From: an uncultured Acidimicrobiia bacterium | GTDB taxonomy: Bacteria; Actinomycetota; Acidimicrobiia; Spongiisociales; UBA5794 | DNA length: 64,000 nt | Assembly: GCA_963708235.1 (NCBI GenBank) | Contig: OY970200.1 | Coordinates: 1,713,373 to 1,777,372 of the forward strand | Reading direction: 5' to 3' | In this document: positions 4,145 to 64,000 of the stretch, piece by piece | How positions within the stretch are numbered: the first letter of the stretch is position 1 | Layout of the letters: each line of letters starts with the position of its first letter | Made by a program: the position numbers and the translations under genes | Notes under the pieces: model-generated | What the model was told of the DNA's origin: nothing | Seen by the model: the letters and a program-made list of their open reading frames with translations, nothing else | Database searches by the model: none

Positions 4145-5188
4145 ATGCCGCACATTCTTCTTGCCGAACCGAGGGGCTTCTGCGCCGGGGTCGAGATGGC
4201 CATCAAGGCGCTCACCTGGATGGTGAGGATCTTCGAGCCGCCGGTGTACTGCTATCACGAGATCGTCCACAACGCGGCGGTCGTCGAGGCCTTCGAGCGC
4301 GCCGGGGTGATCTTCGTCGATGACATCACCGAGGTGCCGTTCGGGAGCCCCGTGATGCTGTCGGCCCATGGTTCCGCACCCGAGGTGGTCGCCGGTGCCT
4401 CCGACCGGGCCGCGGTCATGGTCGATGCGGTGTGCCCGCTGGTCACCAAGGTCCATCACGAGGTCAAGCGGATGGCGGAGAAAGGCTTCGACATAATCTA
4501 CGTCGGGCACCACGGCCACGACGAGGCCATCGGCGCCGTCGCCGAGGCTCCGGATTCGGTCACCCTGGTCGACCCCCGCGACGGTCTGGGTGGTTTCGCC
4601 GCCGCCGAACCGGGCAAGGTGGCGCTGCTCGCCCAGACGACGCTGGGTCTCTACGAATGGGAGGGTGTCCTCGACGACGCCACGGCCGCCTACCCGGATC
4701 TGTGGACGGCCCGGCGCAGCGACCTGTGTTACGCCACCACCAACCGTCAGGCAGCGGTCCAGCATCTCGCCGAACGGGCCACCCTGATCCTGGTGGTCGG
4801 GTCGGAGAACTCGTCGAACACCCAGGCGCTGGTGCGGGTCGCCCGCAACGCCGGGGTCGAGGCCCATCGTGTCGACGGTGCCGAGGCGATCGATCCGGGA
4901 TGGCTCGAGGGCCACGAGGTGATCGGAGTCACCGCCGGAGCGTCCGCACCCGACCAGCGGGTCCAGGCGATCATCGATGTGGTGGTCGGTGGCGGCGAGG
5001 TGGAACGGGTGCGCGTGATCGAGGAAGACGAGTACTTCCCGCTGCCGCCGGCGATGCGTCGGCTCGCCGCAGCCCTGCAAGGGTTGGTCGAAGGGGCGTA
5101 TGCCTGTCGTACCCCGGGTCGGCCCGGTCTGATCGAAGGCGACCGGGAGTGGGGCGCCACCGAAGCCCTGGAACTTCTCGACGTCTGA
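4145..5188 (+). CDS. ispH: 4-hydroxy-3-methylbut-2-enyl diphosphate reductase IspH (LytB)
   Basis: ORF 3914..5188 contains ILLAEPRGFCAGVEMAIKAL...HGSAPEV...CPLVTKVHHEV...NSSNT. The start is assigned to ATG 4145 (MPHILL). An alternative upstream ATG at 4067 is possible. Confidence 0.85.
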   Translation: MPHILLAEPRGFCAGVEMAIKALTWMVRIFEPPVYCYHEIVHNAAVVEAFERAGVIFVDDITEVPFGSPVMLSAHGSAPEVVAGASDRAAVMVDAVCPLVTKVHHEVKRMAEKGFDIIYVGHHGHDEAIGAVAEAPDSVTLVDPRDGLGGFAAAEPGKVALLAQTTLGLYEWEGVLDDATAAYPDLWTARRSDLCYATTNRQAAVQHLAERATLILVVGSENSSNTQALVRVARNAGVEAHRVDGAEAIDPGWLEGHEVIGVTAGASAPDQRVQAIIDVVVGGGEVERVRVIEEDEYFPLPPAMRRLAAALQGLVEGAYACRTPGRPGLIEGDREWGATEALELLDV

Positions 5189-5240
5189 ACTGGCTTCCTT
5201 CCCTGGGCGGTGTCGGTGACGCTGCGGGCCTATCGGACAG

Positions 5241-5317
5241 TGACGCCGCGCCCCGCCCCGTCTGCGTCCGCAAGCGTCCGCAGCCACCCCGCCCCCCAGG
5301 GCGGGGAGGGCCAGAAA
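5241..5317. repeat. 75-bp GC-rich palindromic element (copy A) between convergent ispH and cmk, identical to a module at 61411..61485
   Basis: The string gacgccgcgccccgccccgtctgcgtccgcaagcgtccgcagccaccccgccccccagggcggggagggccagaa occurs at both loci. It contains an 8-bp GC hairpin (CCCCGCCC-CCCA-GGGCGGGG) and an imperfect direct repeat GCGTCCGCA(A)GCGTCCGCAG. Confidence 0.7.
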
Positions 5318-5375
5318 ATGGACATGCCGGACCGCAAGGCTCCTAGCGTGAGCCGACACCCACCTCAGGGGTGCC

Positions 5376-6038
5376 TCACTGAGCGGCCGAGAGGCGTTCG
5401 AGGATGGCGGCGATCACCTGGTCGGCGGTGAGGGGTCCGGTATCGATGCAATAGGCATCGTCTGCGGGTCGTAGCGGAGAATCGGCCCGGTTGGCATCGA
5501 TGGTGTCACGGCGGCGCAGGTCGGCGGCCACGTCGTCGACATGACGGTCGGCAGCTTCGGCGTCACCGGAGCGGCGGGCGGCCCGGATCTCGGGGGCGGC
5601 ATCCAGATAGATCTTGACCGGCGCATCGGGGAACACCACGGTGCCGATGTCCCGCCCCTCGACCACCGCCGATCCCCCGTGCGCCATCACCCACAACCGC
5701 TGGGCGTTCACCAGGTGGCGGCGGATGGCGGGGATGGCGGCGACCCGACTCACCGCCGCCGTCACCGCCTCGTTGCGGATCTCGAGGGCGACCGCCTCGT
5801 CATCGAGCCACACGGCACCCATCTCGTAGCCGATGCGACATCCGGTGGCGGCGGCGATCACCTCGTCGTCGAGGTCGGGGTCGTCGAGATCGGCGTCGCT
5901 ACGCAACACCGCCAGCGTGGCTGCCCGGTACCAGGCTCCGGTGTCGAGATGGGGCAGCGCCAGCCGACCCGCCACCCCCCGGCTCACCGTGCTCTTGCCG
6001 ACCCCGCTCGGTCCGTCCACTGCGATGACCCCGATCAT
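5376..6038 (-). CDS. cmk: cytidylate kinase
   Basis: This is the C-terminal part of ORF 5376..7511: MIGVIAVDGPSGVGKSTVSRGVAGRLALPHLDTGAWYRA (P-loop, Cmk family). Its ATG overlaps the aroA TGA stop (ATGA) at 6035-6038. Confidence 0.85.
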   Translation of the reverse strand: MIGVIAVDGPSGVGKSTVSRGVAGRLALPHLDTGAWYRAATLAVLRSDADLDDPDLDDEVIAAATGCRIGYEMGAVWLDDEAVALEIRNEAVTAAVSRVAAIPAIRRHLVNAQRLWVMAHGGSAVVEGRDIGTVVFPDAPVKIYLDAAPEIRAARRSGDAEAADRHVDDVAADLRRRDTIDANRADSPLRPADDAYCIDTGPLTADQVIAAILERLSAAQ

Positions 6039-7331
6039 GTCGCCGACCACAGCGCATCGATCTGATCGAAGAACCCGGGCCATGACACACCGACGACCTC
6101 GGGATCGTCGATGGTCACCGCACCTGAGACCCCGGCGGCGGCAACGGTGGCCGCCATGGCGATGCGATGATCGCCGTGGGTGGCCACCACCCCGGGGTCG
6201 AGAAACCCGGTCCCCACCACCGCAAATCCGTTCGGGGGTCGCTTCCGCTCCACCACCGAGGGAACGGATCATCTCCACGGTCGAAGCGATGCGGTCGCTC
6301 TCCTTGGCTCGGAGTTCGGCGGCGTCGGTGACGGTGGTGATCCCCTCGGCGAGCGCACCGACCACGGCGACCAGCGGGAGTTCGTCGAGGGCGCTGACCG
6401 CCAGATCCCCGCCGACCTCGGTGGCGCTCAACGCGCCACCACGCACGGTGACGGTCCCCACCGGGTCGCCGAGCAACATCCCGGTGACCTCGGCACGGAT
6501 CTCGGCGCCGAACCGTTCGAGAATCTCCAGAAAGCCGATCCTCCCCGGGTTCAATGAAACACCGGGCGTGGTGATCTCGGCTCCGGGTCGGACCGCCGCC
6601 AACGCCCACAGGTAGGCCGCCGACGACGGGTCGCCGGGTACGAGGTAACGGTGGGTGGGGATCGCTCCGGGCCAGATGCGGAACGCCGTCGCCGACACCC
6701 GCTCCCCCAACCCCCAGGTCTCGAACCATCGCTCGGTGTGATCTCGGTATCCGGGGGGACTGTCGACGAGCGATTCCCCCTCGGCCTGGATTGCCGCCAG
6801 CTCGAACGCCGAACGCACCTGGGCAGAGGCGACGGGGACCACGACGGCGGCGCCGGTGAGCGGATTGGGCGCTCCGACCGAGACCGGAGCGGTGCCGTCC
6901 GGGCGGCTGACCTGAACGCTGGCGCCGAGTGCGCTCAACGGGTCGACCAGGCGACGCATCGGACGGCGACGCAGCGAGGCGTCCCCGGTGAGCACGGTGG
7001 TGAAGGGGCGGGCCGCAAGTGCCCCGGCGAGCAGCCGCAGCGTGGTCCCCGAGTTGCCGCAGTCGATGGTGTCCCCACCGGAACCGGGAACCGGGGGGTG
7101 CCAGGCGGCCACACCGGGTGAGTGCACGGTGCCGTCCGCCTCGATGGTCACACCGAGCCGGCGCAGCGCATCGACCGTGGATGAGATATCGGCGCCGGGG
7201 CCGGCGCCGAGCACCTGGGATGTCCCGGTGGCCATACCCGAGAACAGATAGGCGCGGTGGGACAGCGACTTGTCGCCGGGGGGCGAGCAGACGGCGGTGA
7301 ACGGTGTGGACGGAAGCGAGACAGTGCGCAT
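6035..7331 (-). pseudogene. aroA: 3-phosphoshikimate 1-carboxyvinyltransferase (EPSP synthase) AroA, with an apparent +1 frameshift in a G5 run at 6234-6238
   Basis: The N-terminal 365 aa lie in the frame of ORF 5376..7511 (GDKSLSHRAYLF...KESDRIASTVEMIRSLGGGAEATP). The C-terminus lies in ORF 6035..6256 (NGFAVVGTG...THGDHRIAMA...WPGFFDQ). Removing one G/C from the run restores a contiguous protein of about 431 aa. Start ATG 7331 (MRTVSLP). Confidence 0.8.
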
Positions 7332-7341
7332 CGGTGCGTTC

Positions 7342-8088
7342 CTACGGGGTGTCGGCGGGGGCGGCATCTTGCCACGACCCCGCAGCGGCGTACAGACGGC
7401 GCACCTCATCGAGGCTGAGCAGTCGACTGTCGCCGGGTCGGAGGGTGACATCACGCAGTGGGCCGATGGCGGTGCGGGTGAGCGTGACCACGGGGTGGCC
7501 GATGGCGTCACACATCCGTCGCACCACCCGGTTGCGGCCCTCCTCCATCACCACCTCCGCAAGGGTGCGTCCCGGACGGCGGTCGAGGATCCGCGCCGAC
7601 ACCGCCACGGCAGGACCGTCCTCGAGGTCGACTCCGGACTCCAGGCGACGGATCGTTGCGTCCTTCATGTTGCCCTCCACCAGGACGATGTAGGTCTTGG
7701 TGACGCCGAAGCTCGGATGGGTGAGCCGGTGGGTGAGATCCCCGTCGTTGGTCAGGATGAGCAGACCTTCGCTGTCGGCATCGAGACGACCCACGGGATA
7801 GATTCGCACCTCGGCATCGATGAGATCTACGACGGTGTGGGTGGCGTGGGGGTCATCGGTGGTCGAGATCACCCCCACCGGTTTGTACAGCAGGTGGTAG
7901 ACGAGGTCGGGGCGCACCGGGAGCGGGATCCCGTCGATCTCGACCTGGGCGGTCTCGGTCTCGATCCGCTCCCCGATCTGGGCCTTCCGTCCATCGACGG
8001 TGACCCGACCGGCGGCGATCAGCACCTCGGAATGTCGGCGCGAGGCGTACCCCGAGTGGGCGATCACCTTGTGGATGCGTTCGATCAC
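7342..8088 (-). CDS. rluB: 23S rRNA pseudouridine synthase RluB (RsuA family)
   Basis: This is the C-terminal 248 aa of ORF 7342..8811: ERIHKVIAHSGYASRRHSEVLIAAGRVTVDG...RLDADSEGLLILTNDGDL (S4 domain plus PSU catalytic Asp motif). A GTG start at 8088 overlaps the scpB TGA stop (GTGA). Confidence 0.8.
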   Translation of the reverse strand: MIERIHKVIAHSGYASRRHSEVLIAAGRVTVDGRKAQIGERIETETAQVEIDGIPLPVRPDLVYHLLYKPVGVISTTDDPHATHTVVDLIDAEVRIYPVGRLDADSEGLLILTNDGDLTHRLTHPSFGVTKTYIVLVEGNMKDATIRRLESGVDLEDGPAVAVSARILDRRPGRTLAEVVMEEGRNRVVRRMCDAIGHPVVTLTRTAIGPLRDVTLRPGDSRLLSLDEVRRLYAAAGSWQDAAPADTP

Positions 8089-8655
8089 GGGGCGTCCGGA
8101 CGGAACGGTCGTTCCAGCGCCTCGACCACGGTCGGGGGCGGTACGTGATCGGCGAGCGGCGGGAGGTCGGCGACGGCGTCGATGCCCATCTTCTCGAGGA
8201 ATAGGGAGGTGGTCCCGTAGAGCATCGCCTGACCCGGTCCGGCGGCGCGACCGATCTCGGACACCAGACCGCGCCGCTCCAGGGTCCGCAGCGCCCGTTC
8301 GGAGTCGACGCCACGGATCTCGGCGAGCTGGCCAGCGCGAGATCGGTTGGCGGTAGGCGACGACGGCGAGGGTCTCCAGGGCGGCGCCGGACAGCCGGGT
8401 GGCGGTCTCGGTGGCGGCGAACCGCTCCAGATAGGGCTGGGCGTCCGGGTGGCTGTAGAGACGCCAACCACCGGCGAGCTGTCGCAACACGAAGCCCCGG
8501 CCCTCGGTCTCGAGTTGCTCGGAGAGGCTCTCGAGCTCTGCGGTCACCTCGTCCCTGGGGACCTCGACGAGCTCCGCCAGCTCATGGGCGGCCAGCGGTT
8601 GTTCGGCGACGAACAGCACCGCCTCGATGATGCGCCGCAGATTGGGGGTCACCAT
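8085..8655 (-). pseudogene. scpB: segregation and condensation protein B ScpB, with an apparent frameshift in a CGCGC run near 8335-8340
   Basis: The N-terminus lies in the frame of ORF 7342..8811 (MVTPNLRRIIEAVLFVAEQPL...AVVAYRQPISR). The C-terminus lies in ORF 8085..8471 (AGQLAEIRGVDSERALRTLERRGLVSEIGRAAGPGQAMLYGTTSLFLEKMGI). A 1-nt deletion or 2-nt insertion at tcgcgc|tgg restores a protein of about 190 aa. ATG 8655 overlaps the scpA end by 7 nt. Confidence 0.75.
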
Positions 8656-9413
8656 TCGGTGGTCTCCCCGGCGAGACCGCGGTCGCCATGAGATCGGGCG
8701 GTCACCGCGATCGCCCCCTCCGCCTCGGTCTGGCTGACGCGCACCAGGCCCCACCGGACCAGCTCGAGCAGAGCGAGAAAGTAGGCGATCACCTCGACGG
8801 TTCGCTCGCAATGGGCGACCAACTCGTCGAACTCGGCGACCGCCTCGGAATCGAGACGGCTTCGCAGGTCGTCGATGGCGGCGCCAACCGAGGGGAGATC
8901 GAGGTCGAGGTGGTCGAGTTCGGGTTCTTCGGGGGCGGCGGTGAGCACGCGTTCGGCGATGGCGGCGAGCCCTTCCGGATCGACGCCGAGGCGAAGCTCC
9001 GGGGGCGGCGGGATGATCTCCGGATCCAGACCCACGGTGCGGGGGACAAATCGGGCCATCCCCTCCATGCGGTGGGCGAGCACGGCGGCGACGTCCTTGA
9101 ACGTCAGGCAGGCGAGGAGGCGGGCCAGGAGGCGGTCGCGTTCCTCGGACAACGCCAGTTCCTCGTCGATGTCGATGGCGACGTCACCGGGGAGCAGGTG
9201 GCGTGCCTTGAGCTGGATCAGGGTGGCGGCGATGAGCAGGAACTCGGAGGTGACGTCGATGTCGGTCTGGCGCATCGCATCGAGATGTTCCAGGTACTCG
9301 GTGACCAGCCTCCCGAGACGGAGTTCGGCGATGTCGACCTGATGCGAGGTGATCAGCTGCAGCAGGAGGTCGAGAGGCCCCTCGAACACCCGTGTTTTCA
9401 CCTGATAGCTCAT
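8649..9413 (-). CDS. scpA: segregation and condensation protein A ScpA
   Basis: ORF 8649..9479. The start was trimmed to ATG 9413 (MSYQVKTRVFEGPLDLLLQLITSHQVDI). It has the ScpA N-terminal motif and a conserved C-terminus. Confidence 0.8.
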   Translation of the reverse strand: MSYQVKTRVFEGPLDLLLQLITSHQVDIAELRLGRLVTEYLEHLDAMRQTDIDVTSEFLLIAATLIQLKARHLLPGDVAIDIDEELALSEERDRLLARLLACLTFKDVAAVLAHRMEGMARFVPRTVGLDPEIIPPPPELRLGVDPEGLAAIAERVLTAAPEEPELDHLDLDLPSVGAAIDDLRSRLDSEAVAEFDELVAHCERTVEVIAYFLALLELVRWGLVRVSQTEAEGAIAVTARSHGDRGLAGETTEW

Positions 9414-16793: not shown

Positions 16794-17117
16794 TCACCTC
16801 TGCTCGGTGGGCGGGTCGGGCCGGTCGAGTTGATCGGAGAGAATCGTCGCCATCGCCTCGGCGAGGTCGGCAGCCTGTGACGGGTCGGTGGCTTCCAGCG
16901 TGTCGATCAGTTCATCCAGATCGGCGTCCACGTCGGGAGCATCCGACTCGGGAGCATCCGACTCGGGAGCATCCGACTCAGGAACGTCCAGGTCGGCAGC
17001 GTCCGGCTCGGGTGAGCCGGGACCGGGCGTCTCCCGGTCGGGGGTGCGGTGATCGGTCCCACCCGCTGATTCCCGGGTCGAACCCGGGTTGGTTCCGGGG
17101 GGCTGCGTAGTATCCAT
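16794..17117 (-). CDS. hypothetical acidic protein with tandem (PESDA)x3 repeats
   Basis: The ORF has 15-nt in-frame DNA repeats (gggagcatccgactc x3, 16921-16985) and is D/E/P-rich. There is no recognisable domain. It is tightly linked upstream of tlyA (4-nt gap). Confidence 0.45.
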   Translation of the reverse strand: MDTTQPPGTNPGSTRESAGGTDHRTPDRETPGPGSPEPDAADLDVPESDAPESDAPESDAPDVDADLDELIDTLEATDPSQAADLAEAMATILSDQLDRPDPPTEQR

Positions 17118-27391: not shown

Positions 27392-28020
27392 GGCTCCGGT
27401 TTCGGGTCGGGAGGCACCGGTGGCGTGCCGTGCTCGGGGTGGAACGGATCGTCGATGAGGGCACCGCCATCAGCGGAGGCAATCTCTCCGGAGGAGATCT
27501 CTCCGGAGGCCAGCTCGCCGGAGGCCAGCTCGCCGGAGGCCAGCTCATCGCGTGCCGAGCGGAGCCGGTCCTCGATCTCGGCCAGGGAGGGTGGGACGCC
27601 GGCGGTCGGTGCCGCCGCCGGGCCGGACGGAGAGGCTGGCGGCGGCGAGTCGGGTTGCCCGGTCGGCGTCTCCGGTGAAGCGGCGGACGGTTCAGTCGAT
27701 GCGTCATCTCCCGGCTCAGGCGTCGGGGCCGTCGGCGCCTGACCCGGCGGTGCGCCCGGACCGATCGCATCCAGGGGCGGCATCGTCGCCTTCAGATCGT
27801 CCTTGGCGCTTCTCAGTTCCTTCTCGATGTCGGCGAGCGGTGCCGCCAGGTCGCCGTACTCGCTGGTGAACTCGCTCTTGAGCGAGGACACCGTCTTGCG
27901 GGCCTTCGCCATCAACTCGCCGGCCTTGCGCGCCATCTCGGGGAGGCGGGTCGGGCCGAAGACGATGAGGATCACCAGGGCGATGGTGAGGATCTCAGAG
28001 ATGGTGATGTTGGCGTTCAC
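27388..28020 (-). CDS. tatA: twin-arginine translocase TatA/E-family protein with a long C-terminal P/A/E-rich extension
   Basis: It has an N-terminal TM helix plus amphipathic helix (LVILIVFGPTRLPEMARKAGE). The C-terminal tail contains (ELASG)x3, encoded by 15-nt tandem repeats. Confidence 0.8.
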   Translation of the reverse strand: MNANITISEILTIALVILIVFGPTRLPEMARKAGELMAKARKTVSSLKSEFTSEYGDLAAPLADIEKELRSAKDDLKATMPPLDAIGPGAPPGQAPTAPTPEPGDDASTEPSAASPETPTGQPDSPPPASPSGPAAAPTAGVPPSLAEIEDRLRSARDELASGELASGELASGEISSGEIASADGGALIDDPFHPEHGTPPVPPDPKPEP

Positions 28021-45255: not shown

Positions 45256-45553
45256 CTGGTGTCACCCTATGCGACGGCACGGTCGCCTGCACGTGCTCGG
45301 CGAGGTCCGCCCACCCTGCGTGCAGGCACGGCGCAGGACACCGCCGCATTCGTAAGCGGCTTCGACGTGGCCGGCGATCCCGACGCGGACGCTCCGAATC
45401 GACCGGGTCGTCAATCCGAAAGCGCGACGACGAAGATCGCGGCACGGTCCAGGGTGATGGGACGCTCGGGGGTCCGGGAAGGGCGCGCAGCGCCACTTGA
45501 TGTCGCCAGGGAGACGCAGTCGCCGACCGCATACGAACACGTGCAGGACTGGG

Positions 45554-55878: not shown

Positions 55879-57956
<2,078 letters not shown>

Positions 57957-57966
57957 CGCTGGTACC

Positions 57967-58920
57967 TCATCCCCCAACCGTACCCGGATCTGGGGTCGCA
58001 GGGTCTGAGGTCGCAGGGTCTGGGCTCGCAGGATCTGGGCCGGCAAGTTCGGGAAGGTCGCGGTGGCGCACCGTGATGTCGGCGTTGCCACCGGAGAGCC
58101 GCCGCCCCAACTCCTCGGATATCGCCACCGAGCGGTGGCGACCGCCGGTGCACCCGATACCGATGGTGAGGTACTTCTTGCCCTCGGCTTCGAATCGTGG
58201 GAGGAGGAACTGGAGCAGGTTCTCGATGTGGTCGAGGAAGGTGCGCGCATCCTCGGTCTCGAACACATAGTCGGCGACCTCGGGATCGAGACCGGTCAAC
58301 GGTCGCAACTCGGGTTGCCAGTGCGGGTTGGGAAGGAACCGGGCATCGAACAGGACATCGACGATGCGGGGCACCCCGCGTTTGAACCCGAAACTGGTCA
58401 GATCGACGCGCATCCGCCGGTCGTCCTGACGATGGGCGAAGGCCCGCTCGAGATGGCGTCGGAGATCGTGGACGTTGAGGTCGGTGGTGTCGACCACGAC
58501 ATCGGCCATACCTCTGATCTCCTCCGAGGCGATCCGCTCCCCCGCAATGGCCTCTCCCAGCGAGGGGGCGCTGAAGGGATGCTTGCGGCGGGTCTCTTCG
58601 AAACGGTGACCGAGCGTGGCGTCGTCGGCGTCGAGAAAGAGCACCGTGGTGCGCACTCCCCTGCCGAGCAGTCCCCGCACCGCCTCGTCGAGGTCGTGCG
58701 GGGTGACGCCGCCGCGGGTGTCGACCACCACCGCCATGCGCGGCAGCCGGCCCTCCACCACCCCGACATGATCGACCACCTCGCCGATGAGGGTCGGGGG
58801 CAGATTGTCGACCACGAAGTAGCCGACGTCCTCGAGGACGTTTGCCGCCTGCGAACGCCCGGCCCCCGACATCCCGGTGACGATGATCACCTGGGGTTCG
58901 ATCGTCGGTTCGTTGCTCAT
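57967..58920 (-). CDS. rapZ: RNase adapter protein RapZ (P-loop NTPase YvcJ family)
   Basis: It has a Walker A (VIIVTGMSGAGRS) and the conserved C-terminal domain. The acidic tail has DPAxP repeats encoded by 15-nt tandem repeats. Confidence 0.85.
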   Translation of the reverse strand: MSNEPTIEPQVIIVTGMSGAGRSQAANVLEDVGYFVVDNLPPTLIGEVVDHVGVVEGRLPRMAVVVDTRGGVTPHDLDEAVRGLLGRGVRTTVLFLDADDATLGHRFEETRRKHPFSAPSLGEAIAGERIASEEIRGMADVVVDTTDLNVHDLRRHLERAFAHRQDDRRMRVDLTSFGFKRGVPRIVDVLFDARFLPNPHWQPELRPLTGLDPEVADYVFETEDARTFLDHIENLLQFLLPRFEAEGKKYLTIGIGCTGGRHRSVAISEELGRRLSGGNADITVRHRDLPELAGPDPASPDPATSDPATPDPGTVGG

Positions 58921-60773
58921 GATCCTCCGGTCGGCTGCCCGTGGAGCACTCTATAGACATCGGCGGCCACCGCAGGCGGCACTACCGTCGCAAGTTCGGC
59001 TTCCTCGGCATCGCGCAGTCGCTTGAGCGACCCGAACTGGCGGAGCAGGGCACGCTTGCGTGCCGGTCCGATCCCGGCGACCTCATCGAGGACCGAGTCG
59101 ACCATCCGTTTGCCGCGGATCTGGCGGTGATAGGTGATGGCGAACCGGTGTGCCTCGTCACGGACCCGTTGCAGGAGGTAGAGCGCCTCCTCGCCGCGAG
59201 GAATCACGACCGGGTCGGTGTGGTGGGGTCGGTAGACCTCTTCGAGTCGCTTGGCGAGACCGACCACGGGGATGTCGAGACCGAGTTCGTCGAGCACCTT
59301 CACCGCCCGTCCGAGCTGGCCGGCGCCACCGTCGATGACCACCAGCGAAGGGGCGTAGGCGAAACGACCCCGCTCCTCGATCGGAGAGCGACGGTCGGCG
59401 AGATAGGCGGTGAAGCGACGCCGCAACACCTCCTCCATCGAAGCGAAGTCGTCCTGCCCGTCCACGGTTCGGATCTTGAAACGCCGGTAGTCCGACTTCC
59501 TGGGGAGCCCGTCCTCGAACACCACCATCGAGGCGACCGTATCGGCGCCCTGGATGGTGGAGATGTCGAAACACTCGATCCGCAGCGGCGGGTCCGGGAG
59601 CGACAGATGCTCCTGGAGGCTGCGCAGGGCACGGGCGCGAGCGTTGTGGTCGCTGCTGCGACGCAACCGGTGCCGGTTGAACTCCTCGCGGGCGTTGGCC
59701 GTCGCCGTCTCCATCAAACGACGCTTTGCGCCGCGCTGCGGCACTCGCAGCGACACCGCGGCGCCTCTGCGGTAAGTGAGCCACTCGGTCCACAGCTGCG
59801 GATCGTCGGGCAGCTCCTGGACCAGCACCTGGCGGGGAGGACGCTCGGACCCGTAGAGCTGACCGATGAGAACCCCCACCATCTCGGCGTTCGACACATC
59901 CTCGACCTTGTCGACCACGGTCGTCTTGCGCCCGGTGACGCGGCCCTTGACGACATGGAGCACCACCAGCGCCGCCTCCAGATCGTCCTCCTCCAGTGCG
60001 ATCAGATCGAAGGTCTCGCCACGTTGTGTCACCAGTTCCTGACGAGCCAGCGCCTTCTCGGCGGCGGCGGCCTGGTCACGCAACCGGGCGGCGGTCTCGT
60101 AGTCCTGACGCTGGGCGGCGGCGGCCATCTCCACCCGCAACCCGCTGAGCACGTCGTTGCGGTCGCCGTCGAGGAACCCGGCGAGCCCGTCGACGAGCCC
60201 GGCGTAGGCAGCGGCATCGACCTCGCCGACACACGGTCCGCTGCAGCGTTCGATGTGGAAGAGCAGACACGGTCGTCCCAGGTTCTGGTGGGTCTCGAAC
60301 TTGCGGTCGGTGCACGTCCGGACCGGGAAGGTCCGCAGCAGCAGATCGAGGGTCTGGCGGATGGCGTACGCCTGGGCATACGGTCCGAAGTATTCGACAC
60401 CCTTGCGGCGCTTGCCACGCATCACCGACGCCCGAGGCCACTCCTGGTACCGGGTGATCGCCAGGTAGGGGAACGACTTGTCGTCACGGAGCCGGATATT
60501 GAACCGGGGGCGGTGCTCCTTGATGAGCGAGTACTCCAGCATGAGGGCGGCCACCTCGCTGTCGGTGACGATCCACTCCACGTTGGTGGCGGTGTCGACC
60601 ATGGCCCGGGTCCGGGCTGCCAGATCGCGCGCAAAATACTGGACGACACGTTTGCGCAGCGATTTCGCCTTCCCGACGTACAGCACCGCATCCTGATGGT
60701 CGCGGAAGAGGTACACACCGGGCGAGTCGGGGATCGATGCGCTCGTAGGGCGCTTCACCATCAGGCGGCTCAT
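58917..60773 (-). CDS. uvrC: excinuclease ABC subunit C
   Basis: The start was trimmed to ATG 60773 (MSRLMVKRPTSASIPDSPGVYLFRD...). It has a GIY-YIG N-terminus, a UvrBC-interacting domain and an RNaseH-like/HhH C-terminus. There is an ATGA overlap with rapZ. Confidence 0.9.
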   Translation of the reverse strand: MSRLMVKRPTSASIPDSPGVYLFRDHQDAVLYVGKAKSLRKRVVQYFARDLAARTRAMVDTATNVEWIVTDSEVAALMLEYSLIKEHRPRFNIRLRDDKSFPYLAITRYQEWPRASVMRGKRRKGVEYFGPYAQAYAIRQTLDLLLRTFPVRTCTDRKFETHQNLGRPCLLFHIERCSGPCVGEVDAAAYAGLVDGLAGFLDGDRNDVLSGLRVEMAAAAQRQDYETAARLRDQAAAAEKALARQELVTQRGETFDLIALEEDDLEAALVVLHVVKGRVTGRKTTVVDKVEDVSNAEMVGVLIGQLYGSERPPRQVLVQELPDDPQLWTEWLTYRRGAAVSLRVPQRGAKRRLMETATANAREEFNRHRLRRSSDHNARARALRSLQEHLSLPDPPLRIECFDISTIQGADTVASMVVFEDGLPRKSDYRRFKIRTVDGQDDFASMEEVLRRRFTAYLADRRSPIEERGRFAYAPSLVVIDGGAGQLGRAVKVLDELGLDIPVVGLAKRLEEVYRPHHTDPVVIPRGEEALYLLQRVRDEAHRFAITYHRQIRGKRMVDSVLDEVAGIGPARKRALLRQFGSLKRLRDAEEAELATVVPPAVAADVYRVLHGQPTGGS

Positions 60774-61339
60774 GGTAGGGCGCCGACCGCAGGTAACCGC
60801 ATGACGGAACCCGACCGTGAAGAGGTGGCACATGGAGAGGTGGCCGGGCCGTTGGGCCCGGCCACCGATCGGAGAAGATCGGCAGTGGGAGGGCAGGGAA
60901 CGCCGTCGATGAATCGACGTGCGACCCTCTTTACGACGATCGTGGCGTGAGGCTGCAGCCTGGATGTCGCCAATCCCCTGCCCTTTCGGACCGGAGTGCG
61001 CGAGTGGCGTCACCGCAGTGGTGCTACAGCCACCGATCATCGTCCTCCTACGCCAACCTCCTTCGAGAATCGGAGCCTTCCACCTACGGATAGGCGAAGG
61101 CCTACCTCATCGTTCCCCATGGATAGTGACCCCACGCCCCCCGACGTGGTGCCTACCACGACCACACTATGGCGCGGTGATCGACGAATCTGAATGGGTC
61201 GGCCGCACCAAATGTCTAGACCACACCCGGAACCCGTGCTGGGCGGTCGATTCCCACGCAGTACACACCCCCGCTACCGGGGTGATTCCCGGTAGCCGCG
61301 CCGCCGATACAACGGCGATCCCGCCCCGGCGACTGCGCC

Positions 61340-63240
61340 GCTATGTCGCCGTGCGGATGCGAACCCCGAGTCACGACAACTCGCTCTGACACTGCCAGGC
61401 AATCGGACCTGGACGCCGCGCCCCGCCCCGTCTGCGTCCGCAAGCGTCCGCAGCCACCCCGCCCCCCAGGGCGGGGAGGGCCAGAAGGAGACCACGCCCG
61501 ACGTGGCATGCGAACGTCGTCGTCGCCCTCCCCGCGCCTCCGATCGCGACCCCGAGCGCCCACAGCCCCCAAGGGCAAAGAGCCCAGAAGGAGACCACGC
61601 CCGACGTGGCATGCGAACGTCGTCGTCGCCCTCCCCGCGCCTCCGATCGCGACCCCGAGCGCCCACAGCACCCCAGGGCGGAGAGGCCAGAAGGAGACAG
61701 CCTGTCGACCTGAGGGCAGCGTCCTACCGCACGACCAGACAAACCTGGGGCGCGTCGTCCCTTTCTTGGCCCTCCCCGCCCCGGGGGGCGGGGTGCCTCC
61801 GAGGCTCTGGGAGGAGGCGGGGCGGGGCGCGAGTTCAGCATCCCTGAACGTCGGATGGTCCCGGCCGGTTGCCCTCACCGTGCGGATGCGAACCCAAGTC
61901 ACGACAACGCTCGGCGGCACTGCCAGGCAATCGGACCTGGGACGCGTCGTCCCATTCTTGGCCCTCCCCGCCCCGGGGGGCGGGGCGCCTCCGAGGCTCT
62001 GGGAGGAGGTGGGGCGGGGTGCCTCCGAGGCTCTGGGAGGAGGTGGGGCGGGGTGCCTCCGAGGCTCTGGGAGGAGGCGGGGCGGGGCGCGAGTTCAGCA
62101 TCCCTGAACATCGGATGATCCCGGCCGGTTGCCCTCACCGTGCGGATGCGAACCCCAAGTCACGACAACGCTCGGCGGCACTGCCAGGCAATCGGACCTG
62201 GGACGCGTCGTCCCATTCTTGGCCCTCCCCGCCCCGGGGGACGAGGTGCCACCGAGGCCCTGGGAGGAGGCGGGGCGGGGCGCGAGTTCAGCATCCCTGA
62301 ACATCGGATGATCCCGGCCGGTTGCCCTCACCGTGCGGATGCGAACCCCAAGTCACGACAACGCTCGGCGGCACTGCCAGGCAATCGGACCTGGGGCGCG
62401 TCGTCCCATTCTTGGCCCTCCCCGCCCCGGGGGACGAGGTGCCACCGAGGCCCTGGGAGGAGGCGGGGCGGGGCGCGAGTTCAGCATCCCTGAACATCGG
62501 ATGGTCCCGGCCGGTTGCCCTCACCGTGCGGATGCGAACCCCAAGTCACGACAACTCTCGGCGGCACTGCCAGGCAATCGGACCTGGGGCGCGTCGTCCC
62601 ATTCTTGGCCCTCCCCGCCCCGGGGGACGAGGTGCCACCGAGGCCCTGGGAGGAGGCGGGGCGGGGCGCGAGTTCAGCATCCCTGAACATCGGATGGTCC
62701 CGGCCGGTTGCCCTCACCGTGCGGATGCGAACCCCAAGTCACGACAACTCTCGGCGGCACTGCCAGGCAATCGGACCTGGGGCGCGTCGTCCCATTCTTG
62801 GCCCTCCCCGCCCCGGGGGACGAGGTGCCACCGAGGCCCTGGGAGGAGGCGGGGCGGGGCGCGAGTTCAGCATCCCTGAACATCGGATGATCCCGGCCGG
62901 TTGCCCTCACCGTGCGGATGCGAACCCCAAGTCACGACAACGCTCGGCGGCACTGCCAGGCAATCGGACCTGGGGCGCGTCGTCCCTTTCTTGGCCCTCC
63001 CCGCCCCGGGGGGCGGGGTGCCACCGAGGCTCTGGGAGGAGGCGGGGCGGGGCGCGAGTTCAGCATCCCTGAACATCGGATGATCCCGGCCGGTTGCCCT
63101 CGCCGTGCGGATGCGAACCCCGAGTCACGACAACTCTCGGCGACACTGCCCGATACTCGGACCCAGACGCCGCGCGCCCCGCCCGTCTGCGTCCGTAAAG
63201 CGTCCCGCGGCCGACCCGCCGGTCGATCGCTGACCGGGTC
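61340..63240. repeat. non-coding tandem-repeat array with a 193-bp unit: about 7 full head-to-tail copies (starts 61861, 62121, 62314, 62507, 62700, 62893, 63086), flanked by a divergent 5' copy (61340-61860) and a degenerate 3' copy
   Basis: The unit is ccggccggttgccctcaccgtgcggatgcgaacccc...gagttcagcatccctgaacatcggatgatc, with 193-bp spacing seen directly. Copies differ by a few SNPs. The first copies carry nested 103-bp x2 and 34-bp x3 sub-repeats. The period is not a multiple of 3, and all six frames are interrupted. Confidence 0.85.
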
Positions 63241-63244
63241 ACGA

Positions 63245-64000
63245 TCAGCCGGTTCGCCAGCGGATCCCGACCAGACGGGGTACGAACTCCTGACCCTGGT
63301 ATCCGGGGTGAGCGGCGATGGCGTCGGTGGACAGTGGCCGTTCCTCACACCGTTCCAACCGCCACCCTGCCTCGGCGGCGGTGGTGAGGATCGCACCCAA
63401 CGGGCGGTGGTGGAAGGTGACGCTCCGGGTCCCGTCGAGGATCGTGGGGACGGCGCCCGTCTCGAAGTACGGACCCCACCGCCACAGCACCTCGCCGTCG
63501 GAGAGGTCGATGATCGGTCCGGAACCGTCGGCGGTGAACGACGGGTGGTTCGACACCACGACCAAGGACCCTTCGGGTCTCACCACCCGGCGGACCGACT
63601 CGAAGAGAGCGCTCAGATCGGCGATGTGCTCGACCGTCAACACCGCATAGGCGCCGGCCAGCGTCCCGGGTCGGATCCAGGCGAGATCGGGGAGCCGGCA
63701 CCGCACCACGGGTGCCGCCGACGCCCCCAACCGGGCCAGATCATGCGAGATGTCGCAACCGATCACCGGTCGGGTCATCCGGCGCAGCATCCGCCCCTCG
63801 CCACATCCAAGATCCAGCCACGGGACGTCGTCGGTACCCGATCGACGGCGGAACGGGTCGCCCCCGGACTCGGCGTCGGGACCAGACCCGGCGCCATCGA
63901 TCAGCGACAGGGTGAACGGCGCCACATCGGTTCCGAACACCGCATCGCTGCGGGCCTCGTCGGCCCACCAACCGGCGAGATGCTCCCACTCGTCAGTCAT
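63245..64000 (-). CDS. class I SAM-dependent methyltransferase
   Basis: It has a glycine-rich motif I (WLDLGCGEGRM) and the MTase fold. The ATG is the last three bases of the window (MTDEWEHLAGWW), so the CDS is complete. Confidence 0.7.
   Translation of the reverse strand: MTDEWEHLAGWWADEARSDAVFGTDVAPFTLSLIDGAGSGPDAESGGDPFRRRSGTDDVPWLDLGCGEGRMLRRMTRPVIGCDISHDLARLGASAAPVVRCRLPDLAWIRPGTLAGAYAVLTVEHIADLSALFESVRRVVRPEGSLVVVSNHPSFTADGSGPIIDLSDGEVLWRWGPYFETGAVPTILDGTRSVTFHHRPLGAILTTAAEAGWRLERCEERPLSTDAIAAHPGYQGQEFVPRLVGIRWRTG

Follow-up and report, generated by a model that had tools for sequence, protein, structure and literature searches.

A tandem repeat array between a methyltransferase gene and uvrC in an Acidimicrobiia genome is probably a local amplification of a dispersed MITE/REP-like repeat

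We analysed a 64,000-nucleotide stretch of DNA, hereafter the window, from the genome of an uncultured Acidimicrobiia bacterium. Towards its end the window carries uvrC on the minus strand (58917-60761; 614 amino acids, ATG start at 60761), identified by Pfam and by a 100% match to P0001. A class-I SAM-dependent methyltransferase of the Methyltransf_11/25 type (Pfam) follows at 63245-64000, also on the minus strand. These are the two flanking genes that a previous sequence-only reading of the locus had named. On one side the flank consists of uvrC, rapZ, cofD and gap, on the other side of the methyltransferase. The methyltransferase precedes uvrC in relatives as well, and uvrA and uvrB lie further out there. 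Between the two genes we find a structured RNA-like element just upstream of uvrC (60837-61212, minus strand) and, separate from it, an array of GC-rich repeats.

The spacer between methyltransferase and uvrC is 2,483 bp long, compared to 459-604 bp in six syntenic relatives, whose UvrC proteins are ~80% identical. These six relatives share only the RNA-like element of the spacer and show no similarity to the array. Neither blastn nor nhmmer detects similarity to the array at eighty uvrC loci of GTDB species (UvrC at most 67% identical). The array occupies the gap between the methyltransferase stop codon and the RNA-like element, a gap that normally measures 11-124 nt. Judged by these comparisons, the array appears to be a lineage-specific insertion.

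The largest part of the array is a 193-bp periodic block at 61743-63150 (no strand), which holds ~7 unit-equivalents in 1.41 kb. TRF reports the 193-bp period at 62045-63150 (5.7 copies, 98% matches, score 2093). Overlapping TRF rows reach back to 61785, and repeat finding within the array traces the register leftward to 61743; repeat families D1 and D2, anchor positions and pairwise differences mark the same block. Five units are exactly 193 bp long (62140-63104; starts at 62140, 62333, 62526, 62719 and 62912, anchor GTGCGGATGCGAACCC) and differ from each other by 1-7 changes per 193 nt. One unit at 61880-62139 is enlarged to 260 bp by 3.3 copies of a 34-bp sub-repeat, GGGGCGGGGTGCCTCCGAGGCTCTGGGAGGAGGT (61977-62087, no strand; 97% matches in TRF and visible in the sequence). 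Two GGGGCGGGG direct repeats flank this sub-repeat, and the same direct repeats stand 34 bp apart in every unit. At both ends the block closes with partial units.

A 30-nt core, GTGCGGATGCGAACCCCAAGTCACGACAAC, occurs seven times at up to 3 mismatches, compared to 0.00 times expected from shuffles, and a 16-nt anchor of this core occurs eight times. The 163 nt between cores are near-identical from unit to unit (96-99.5%). Each unit contains the palindromes TTCAG-N5-CTGAA, CCGGCCGG and CCAGG-N8-CCTGG and forms 3-4 hairpins of -6 to -22 kcal/mol. The SNPs listed in the sequence-only reading (gatc/ggtc, acgc/actc, gggacgcg/ggggcgcg and cccattc/ccctttc) are all found in the sequence, and so are its three hairpins, its CCGGCCGG palindrome and its plus-strand G-tracts.

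The 193-bp units do not fill the whole array. To the left of the block, and separate from it, lies a 103-bp tandem repeat of 2.1 copies (61481-61698; TRF 95% matches, family D5). Each of its copies terminates with a degenerate GC hairpin module in plus orientation, as seen in a fuzzy hairpin map. The two outermost parts are diverged copies of the repeat family, both in plus orientation. The left-edge copy (61346-61486; blastn, nhmmer and alignment A1) consists of core, linker, GACGCCGCGCCCCGCCCCGTCTGCGTCCGCAAGCGTCCGCAGCC and then the GC hairpin. The right-edge copy (63100-63244; families D3 and D7, alignment A1) immediately follows the methyltransferase stop codon on the 3' side. The edge copies are 85% identical to each other over 84 nt and ~76% identical to the inner units. 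Hence the tandem array described earlier is real, but the ~9 head-to-tail copies of 193 bp over 1.9 kb shrink to ~7 unit-equivalents over 1.41 kb (TRF and self-comparison), and the remainder is the 103-bp array and the edge copies.

Parts of the array recur elsewhere in the same genome. The 75 nt at 61412-61486 match window positions 5242-5316, 56 kb away, without a single difference (blastn 75/75; nhmmer E=1e-15). The latter positions belong to a dispersed family copy at 5189-5375 (plus strand; blastn, nhmmer and fold), a 187-bp sequence that takes up the entire spacer between the convergent genes ispH (4145-5188, plus strand; Pfam LYTB) and cmk (minus strand, stop at 5376; Pfam Cytidylate_kin). 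In two relatives (L089 and L090) the ispH-cmk spacer is 8 and 10 bp long. The 187-bp copy is a long imperfect palindrome with a strongly stable fold (z=-2.98), and its imperfect inverted ends of ~17 nt pair in the MFE structure. These inverted ends are missing from the tandem units and from the edge copies (alignment A1), and the 32-nt core CCGTGCGGATGCGAACCCCRAGTCACGACAAC, present at the array, was not found in the ispH-cmk copy.

Further copies are indicated by spurious open reading frames. Translations of the array, compared with collections of 5.8 billion and 1.84 billion proteins, match only P0241, P0242, P0243, P0244 and P0247. P0241 is the window's own reading frame. The other four are spurious frames on the same 3,740,380-bp contig, none of them encoded in the window. 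Two extragenic family loci thus lie in the 64-kb window, and at least four more on the same contig can be deduced from the spurious frames. In the searched protein collections, no other genome has reading frames that translate the array modules. An exact 21-nt core has no match in genome, metagenome or viral contig collections, the hairpin module has none among viral contigs, and blastn at distant settings finds none for the unit and the left part among plasmids or for the unit among phages. A metagenome scan with GTCTGCGTCCG...GCGTCC, the edge-copy segment between core and GC hairpin, returned two matches inside coding sequence that looks MutY-like by eye, and we regard them as chance.

The GC hairpin module, CACCCCGCCCCCC(A/G)GGGCGGGGAGGGCCA(A)GAA, has three plus-oriented copies, at 5279, 61449 and 61660, whereas each 193-bp unit carries one copy in minus orientation (seven in total). 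A related pattern, CCCGCCCC-N2-8-GGGCGGG, has 8 matches versus 0.04 expected. The hairpin has an energy of -24.1 kcal/mol in the dispersed copy and -22.1 kcal/mol in the outer units. Derived changes common to the four central units reduce its stability, from -22.1 kcal/mol to roughly -15 or -16 kcal/mol. The two derived changes preserve G.U pairs on the minus-strand RNA. This retention would fit a transcribed hairpin, with a chance expectation of 50%. The 193-bp unit is a mosaic, assembled from modules of a MITE/REP-like repeat that is dispersed in this genome, a feature that the sequence-only reading had not recognised.

Taken together, we give a probability of roughly 70% to the following interpretation: the array is a recently amplified, lineage-specific cluster of a dispersed, non-coding MITE/REP-like repeat with GC-rich hairpins, confined to one Acidimicrobiia genome. 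The few differences between units, the derived changes in the central units and the occurrence of all four allele combinations of sites 30 and 171 across four adjacent units suggest that turnover of the array is recent or ongoing. Two of the roles proposed earlier, a satellite prone to expansion and a recombination hotspot, are in essence borne out by the evidence. Prokaryotes commonly have species-specific repeats, ~11% of them are tandem, and many intergenic ones are without known function (PMC3372372).

We infer the following order of events. A member of the repeat family would first have inserted between the methyltransferase stop codon and the conserved RNA-like element upstream of uvrC, where the spacer was short. 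The two edge copies may be what remains of this original member. Short direct repeats inside it, both the GC hairpin modules and the GGGGCGGGG motifs, could then have been the substrates of replication slippage and unequal recombination. This process may have produced first a mosaic 193-bp unit and subsequently ~7 tandem copies, together with the nested 34-bp and the adjacent 103-bp expansions. Intra-array recombination or gene conversion would keep the units homogeneous at 96-99.5%. Any effect on the host would be a by-product: a 2-kb hairpin-rich spacer may uncouple the methyltransferase from the downstream RNA-like element and uvrC, and, like REP elements, it may cause read-through to pause or terminate or give stability to the 3' end of the upstream mRNA.

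An amplification could also be apparent only. The copy number, or the entire tandem arrangement, would then be an assembly artefact of a metagenome-assembled genome, which we consider unlikely. The source is indeed a MAG-type contig, and tandem repeats are a recognised cause of assembly error (PMC6868369). However, a collapsed or duplicated consensus would yield neither the distinct SNP combinations nor the nested 34-bp and 103-bp sub-arrays with their unique junctions. The 3.74-Mb length of the contig suggests that long reads span the 2 kb, and related modules occur at further loci of the same genome.

The array resembles known bacterial repeat families in part. REPs occur in more than 100 extragenic copies per genome, and a cognate RAYT gene (a Y1 transposase) is flanked by REPs. 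REPs are GC-rich imperfect palindromes of ~30 nt that lie outside genes, at their 3' ends. The GC hairpin module has these properties: it is GC-rich, imperfectly palindromic, within ~20-40 nt and folds into a stem-loop. As with REPs and BIMEs, the repeat is scattered over one genome and combined with linker modules into mosaic units, and it is a source of intergenic length polymorphism, as in E. coli, Pseudomonas, Xanthomonas and Stenotrophomonas. A composite unit in tandem, here ~7 units of 193 bp, is typical of BIME-2 and atypical BIMEs (PMC2817692).

There are also differences to REPs. A REP head is a conserved GT(A/G)G or CGTC tetranucleotide directly at the end of the palindrome (PMC2817692, PMC3733652). 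Here, CGCAGCCA stands 5' of the stem, the nearest CGTC is ~9 nt away and neither strand shows a GTRG head. The hairpins do not alternate in orientation as in BIMEs; all seven in the 193-bp block are minus and all three in the left part are plus. The unit of 193 bp is far longer and carries several unrelated palindromes. Finally, the host belongs to the Acidimicrobiia, whereas RAYT-associated REPs were found only in gammaproteobacteria in the study cited above (PMC2817692).

The likeness to MITEs and REPINs comes from the ispH-cmk copy. This non-coding insertion of 187 bp has imperfect inverted ends, folds into a strongly stable hairpin (z=-2.98) and shares 75 identical nt with a copy 56 kb away. 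Presence/absence polymorphism at conserved sites, another property of MITEs, is seen in both the ispH-cmk and the methyltransferase-uvrC spacers. The tandem units differ from MITEs and REPINs in having no inverted ends, the ends of 5189-5375 show no target-site duplication, and no parent IS came to light. The sequence-only reading had itself stated that homology of the unit to a known element such as a MITE would refute its claim. Since the unit is built from modules of a MITE/REP-like repeat, the more exotic readings are weakened.

Other repeat systems share fewer properties with the array. MIRU units of Mycobacterium are 40-100 bp long, intergenic and variable in copy number from strain to strain; such MIRU/VNTR-type intergenic minisatellites were reportedly described by Supply and colleagues in 1997 and 2000. 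Like these, the array is a head-to-tail series of non-coding repeats that lies between genes of an operon-like actinobacterial housekeeping region, with related copies at several loci and probable expansion through slippage or recombination. In contrast to MIRUs, its unit of 193 bp lies outside the 40-100 bp range, and it has neither a small open reading frame nor an overlap with flanking start or stop codons. NIME/dRS3 sequences of Neisseria are lineage-specific intergenic arrays of 50-150-bp blocks, bounded by a short repeated module. The array, too, is composed of intergenic blocks delimited by a short repeated module in one lineage, but there is no sequence similarity, the delimiter is a GC hairpin instead of the 20-bp dRS3 inverted repeat, and a link to phage integration is not seen. 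With CRISPRs the array shares a short conserved core that recurs at a fixed period. It is not a CRISPR, as had been recognised before, because the intervening 163 nt are 96-99.5% identical and hence not unique spacers; the examined flanks contain no cas genes.

The array does not encode a protein. All six frames of the unit contain stops, and the longest open stretch is 192 codons. A Pfam search of six array reading frames gave no match, which agrees with the earlier statement that the array cannot encode a periodic protein. The coding hypothesis was rejected on these grounds and because homologues exist only as spurious frames of the same genome.

A function in DNA binding or DNA structure is improbable. 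The units would then be protein-binding sites or non-B-DNA motifs (palindromes, a minus-strand G4, a plus-strand i-motif) and the array a nucleoid anchor, a gyrase site, an insulator or a copy-number-dependent regulator of the RNA-like element and uvrC. The three palindromes of each unit point in this direction, as do the strong gyrase binding of tandem BIME-2 clusters in E. coli (PMC2817692) and the single G4 motif per unit that appears on the minus strand only when loops of up to 12 nt are allowed (loops 1/1/8). Yet the palindromes are short and unremarkable at ~72% G+C, relatives show no conservation, and the flanks hold no candidate gene for a binding protein. Canonical G4 motifs, with loops of at most 7 nt, are absent from both strands. 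Hence the units do not each contain the four runs of at least three Gs with 1-7-nt loops that define a G-quadruplex array. The plus-strand G-quadruplex potential proposed earlier does not withstand a search for canonical motifs either: the plus strand yields none, whether loops are limited to 7 nt or to 12 nt.

Slightly harder to uphold is the proposal that the units are small genes for structured RNAs, or that the array yields a long repetitive RNA that is processed to unit-length RNAs. Its appeal comes from the 3-4 hairpins per unit, from two units whose plus strand has a T-rich tail after a terminator-like hairpin, and from the array's place a short way upstream of an authentic structured RNA element. 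Tandem structured RNA genes would have a promoter for each unit, a fold of more than chance stability, and a match to a known family or covariation; the array shows no such promoter, fold or family match. Positions 60500-64000 have no Rfam match at E<=1, and on both strands shuffled sequence folds as well as the unit does (z -0.66 and -0.47). The array has no sigma-70-like promoter. Its 1.4 kb lack any TA dinucleotide (~13 expected), so there can be no TANNNT -10 box on either strand; this count is of one 193-bp unit seven times over and serves solely to exclude that box. As an independent signal, the TA-free composition was discarded for the same reason. Furthermore, the units that were amplified last carry a decayed form of the strongest hairpin, and the array is missing from all relatives that retain the locus. 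The structured ncRNA array suggested by the sequence-only reading is thus not borne out.

Less probable again is a functional regulatory spacer of variable copy number, transcribed from the methyltransferase side, in which the GC hairpins of each unit, with G.U pairing kept on the minus-strand RNA, and the minus-strand G4 motifs would form a tunable roadblock or insulator. If this were true, the spacer would set read-through to the structured RNA and uvrC and would act as a contingency-type rheostat for the expression of DNA repair. We regard it as most improbable that the array is left over from an integrated mobile element or prophage, in which the 85%-identical edge copies would be attL and attR, because, even though ~100-bp direct repeats (families D3 and D7) bracket a 1.75-kb interior, this interior holds repeats only and no reading frame with a Pfam match, phage, plasmid and viral collections show no similarity, the sole tRNA of the window lies far off at 45552 and the edge sequence itself belongs to the repeat unit; with neither gene content nor a tRNA, the att reading was rejected.

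The amplified MITE/REP-like repeat is most likely selfish or neutral DNA without a sequence-specific cellular function; we infer neutrality because signals of function are absent. The array is then mainly a caution, as a striking 1.9-kb 'satellite' would be the local amplification of a genome-specific dispersed repeat, and neither a new RNA nor a defence system. It would also illustrate clearly, in a lineage of uncultured Acidimicrobiia, how large tandem arrays can grow out of MITE/REP-like modules. To our knowledge, such elements are undescribed in this lineage. In practice, the array could be used as a marker for strain typing or populations and as a checkpoint for assembly quality.

A separate observation concerns the RNA-like element between the array and uvrC. 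At ~375 nt, it is conserved and supported by covariation (alignment A3, RNAalifold, nhmmer, pair counts and covariance model R1). The spacer upstream of uvrC has only chance-level matches in Rfam at E<=10, and the loci of the relatives have no match at gathering thresholds. The element terminates in a GC-rich, terminator-like hairpin. For RNA biologists, it may be a more useful lead than the array.

The array is flanked, as the sequence-only reading stated, by uvrC (58917-60761, minus strand; 614 aa, ATG at 60761) and a class-I SAM methyltransferase gene (63245-64000, minus strand). The encoded UvrC is identical to the database protein P0001, located on a contig of 3,740,380 bp. The next-closest UvrC proteins are only ~80% identical, and the best matches with a named source are Acidimicrobiia MAGs. 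From the ~80%-identical set we compared the uvrC loci of six relatives (L083-L088). All six keep the order methyltransferase, uvrC, rapZ, cofD, gap; pgk and tpi come after gap in the loci that extend far enough. The spacer between methyltransferase and uvrC spans 2,483 bp in the window but 459-604 bp in the relatives, and the only feature common to all is a conserved element adjoining uvrC. Since the distance from the methyltransferase stop to this element is 2,032 nt here and 11-124 nt in the six relatives, whose spacers hold no array-like sequence, the array is a lineage-specific addition of ~1.9-2.0 kb within a normally tiny spacer.

In the same gene order (uvrC, rapZ, yvcK-like cofD, gap; window 55879-58960 and L083-L088), whiA is absent between the yvcK-like gene and gap, and this arrangement is identical in every relative fetched. 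In Actinobacteria whiA usually follows yvcK.

The array is real and non-random, with ~7 unit-equivalents. This follows from the tandem-repeat register, core counts and anchor intervals. TRF finds a 193-bp period at 62045-63150 (5.7 copies, 98% matches, score 2093), and a repeat-family search of the window places the register from 61743 to ~63150. A 30-nt core, GTGCGGATGCGAACCCCAAGTCACGACAAC, occurs seven times compared to 0.00 expected in shuffles. The anchors of a 16-nt core are separated by 529, 260, 193, 193, 193, 193 and 193 nt, with a terminal piece of 140 nt, and the five exact 193-bp units differ pairwise at 1-7 positions. Hence the array proposed from sequence alone exists, with fewer than the ~9 copies envisaged. 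Nor is the 1.9 kb a single 193-bp array: it combines three periodicities with two edge copies. An unrelated 103-bp repeat occupies 61481-61698 (2.1 copies), a nested 34-bp repeat occupies 61977-62087 (3.3 copies), and a further TRF row with a 261-bp period begins at 61785. The edge copies (84 nt; at 61346 and 63100) match each other at 85% and the inner units at only ~76%. The SNPs, hairpins and CCGGCCGG described earlier are all present in the sequence. A canonical motif search finds no G-quadruplex on the plus strand, where one had been suggested; a G4 motif with loops of 1/1/8 occurs once per unit, on the minus strand only.

The four central units differ from each other at only three sites. 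Two of these sites show all four allele combinations, which points to recombination or conversion within the array, or to recurrent mutation. Derived substitutions common to these units make the main hairpin less stable: its energy rises from -22.1 kcal/mol to roughly -15 or -16. Each unit carries two GGGGCGGGG motifs spaced 34 bp apart, the exact period of the nested expansion, and a degenerate hairpin module ends each 103-bp copy. The 34-bp spacing, the hairpin-ended 103-bp copies and the unit variants bear the marks of slippage and of unequal exchange among short repeats inside the array.

The modules are not restricted to the uvrC locus. A blastn comparison of the spacer with the rest of the window shows that 61412-61486 is 100% identical to 5242-5316 over 75 nt; the GC hairpin ending this stretch is present, inverted, in each 193-bp unit. 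The second site (5189-5375, 187 bp) fills the entire spacer between the convergent genes ispH (4145-5188) and cmk. It folds into a long imperfect palindrome (z=-2.98) with inverted ends of ~17 nt. Because the equivalent spacer is only 8 and 10 bp long in the two large-contig relatives, this copy is an insertion.

For copies in the source genome beyond the window, we used predicted proteins as a proxy. The translated array matches four of 5.8 billion proteins, all on the source contig, and an exhaustive phmmer search of 1.84 billion representatives adds a fifth. One match, P0241, corresponds to ORF 61343-62107 of the window itself. The others (P0242, P0243, P0244 and P0247; 157-240 aa, annotated as 'proteins') lie on the same 3.74-Mb contig, with no coding sequence in the window. 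Each holds one to three stretches corresponding to translated hairpin, G-rich and edge-copy modules. As they lack Pfam domains and are rich in Arg, Gly and Pro, they are spurious ORFs over additional repeat copies or clusters. The public annotation of the source genome thus includes false, repeat-derived genes, P0241 among them. Apart from low-complexity matches, neither protein collection contains similar proteins from other genomes, and DNA searches for the array sequence in genome, metagenome, viral, plasmid and phage collections give no match. Two metagenome matches to a 21-nt pattern, both within coding sequence, are due to chance. Together with the second window site and the same-contig ORFs, these searches show that the modules belong to a dispersed repeat family that, on the available evidence, is limited to the source genome.

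We therefore regard the array most likely as selfish or neutral DNA, with a probability of roughly 0.7. Incidentally, it could uncouple the methyltransferase from the downstream RNA element and uvrC, pause or terminate read-through, or stabilise an mRNA 3' end. Alternatively, the array may bind a protein or adopt non-B DNA, a possible role for which there is no positive support and against which the lack of conservation speaks. That the copy number is an assembly error is improbable given the units' distinct SNP haplotypes and the nested sub-arrays. A structured RNA array, also proposed earlier, is not supported: Rfam gives no match at E<=1, the unit folds no better than shuffled sequence on either strand (z -0.66 and -0.47), and sigma-70-like promoters are missing. 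Since 1.4 kb of the array lack any TA dinucleotide, there is no TANNNT box. The earlier exclusion of a periodic protein and of CRISPR holds, with stops in all frames and no matching Pfam family for the former, and identical 'spacers' and no cas genes in the flanks for the latter. An integrated element fails for want of gene content, a nearby tRNA, and phage or plasmid similarity.

The closest counterparts are REP/BIME clusters, MITEs/REPINs, MIRU-type minisatellites and neisserial mosaic arrays. Like these, the family is extragenic, hairpin-bearing, mosaic, dispersed within one genome and locally tandem. However, the GT(A/G)G or CGTC head of REP/BIME proper is absent, the hairpins do not alternate in orientation as in BIMEs, and the 193-bp unit exceeds the MIRU range. 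Hence we assign the element to no named family and class it as new and genome-specific, within the broad kind of dispersed intergenic mosaic repeats that have amplified in tandem.

Between the array and the start of uvrC lies the conserved element (61212-60837, minus strand, ~375 nt), which is RNA-like and structured. It is found in 6/6 relatives (L083 9557-9925, L084 9521-9896, L085 3543-3924, L086 3571-3945, L087 2468-2842, L088 3558-3917) and opens with the invariant box TTGGTGCGGCCGACCCATT. Predicted partners pair in 90.9% of cells, compared to 40-48% when slid by 1-3 columns, and 0 of 500 shuffles attain the observed values. Compensatory double changes affect 30 of 109 predicted pairs, among only six sequences. 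The 3' end forms a covarying GC hairpin resembling a terminator, which in some relatives has a T-rich tail. Rfam contains no match, and nhmmer and a covariance model of the 5' domain do not detect the element outside the clade with ~80%-identical UvrC. It is a candidate for a new structured RNA or sRNA, or for a uvrC leader or attenuator. The mechanical uvrC ORF (58917-61040, minus strand, 707 aa) extends 93 codons 5' of the true ATG and overlaps the element, so a naive gene call would mask it.

The left edge of the array is separated from the element by 133 nt (61213-61345, minus strand) that are unconserved in the relatives. They carry a 9-bp hairpin, GCTACCGGG-AATCA-CCCGGTAGC, and after it a G/T-rich run. 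This feature may be the terminator of the methyltransferase gene, now displaced, or may belong to the inserted element.

Elsewhere in the window, single open frames on the minus strand cover aroA and cmk (5376-7511, 711 aa; EPSP_synthase, Cytidylate_kin) and scpB and a pseudouridine synthase (7342-8811, 489 aa). In relatives, both pairs are separate, slightly overlapping genes. The frames could be true fusions, or the mechanical ORF list may just read through in frame. Short tandem repeats with a 15-bp period at 16933-17012 and 27474-27546 (5.3 and 4.9 copies, 81-89% matches, lengths multiples of 3) are probably pentapeptide repeats within coding regions.
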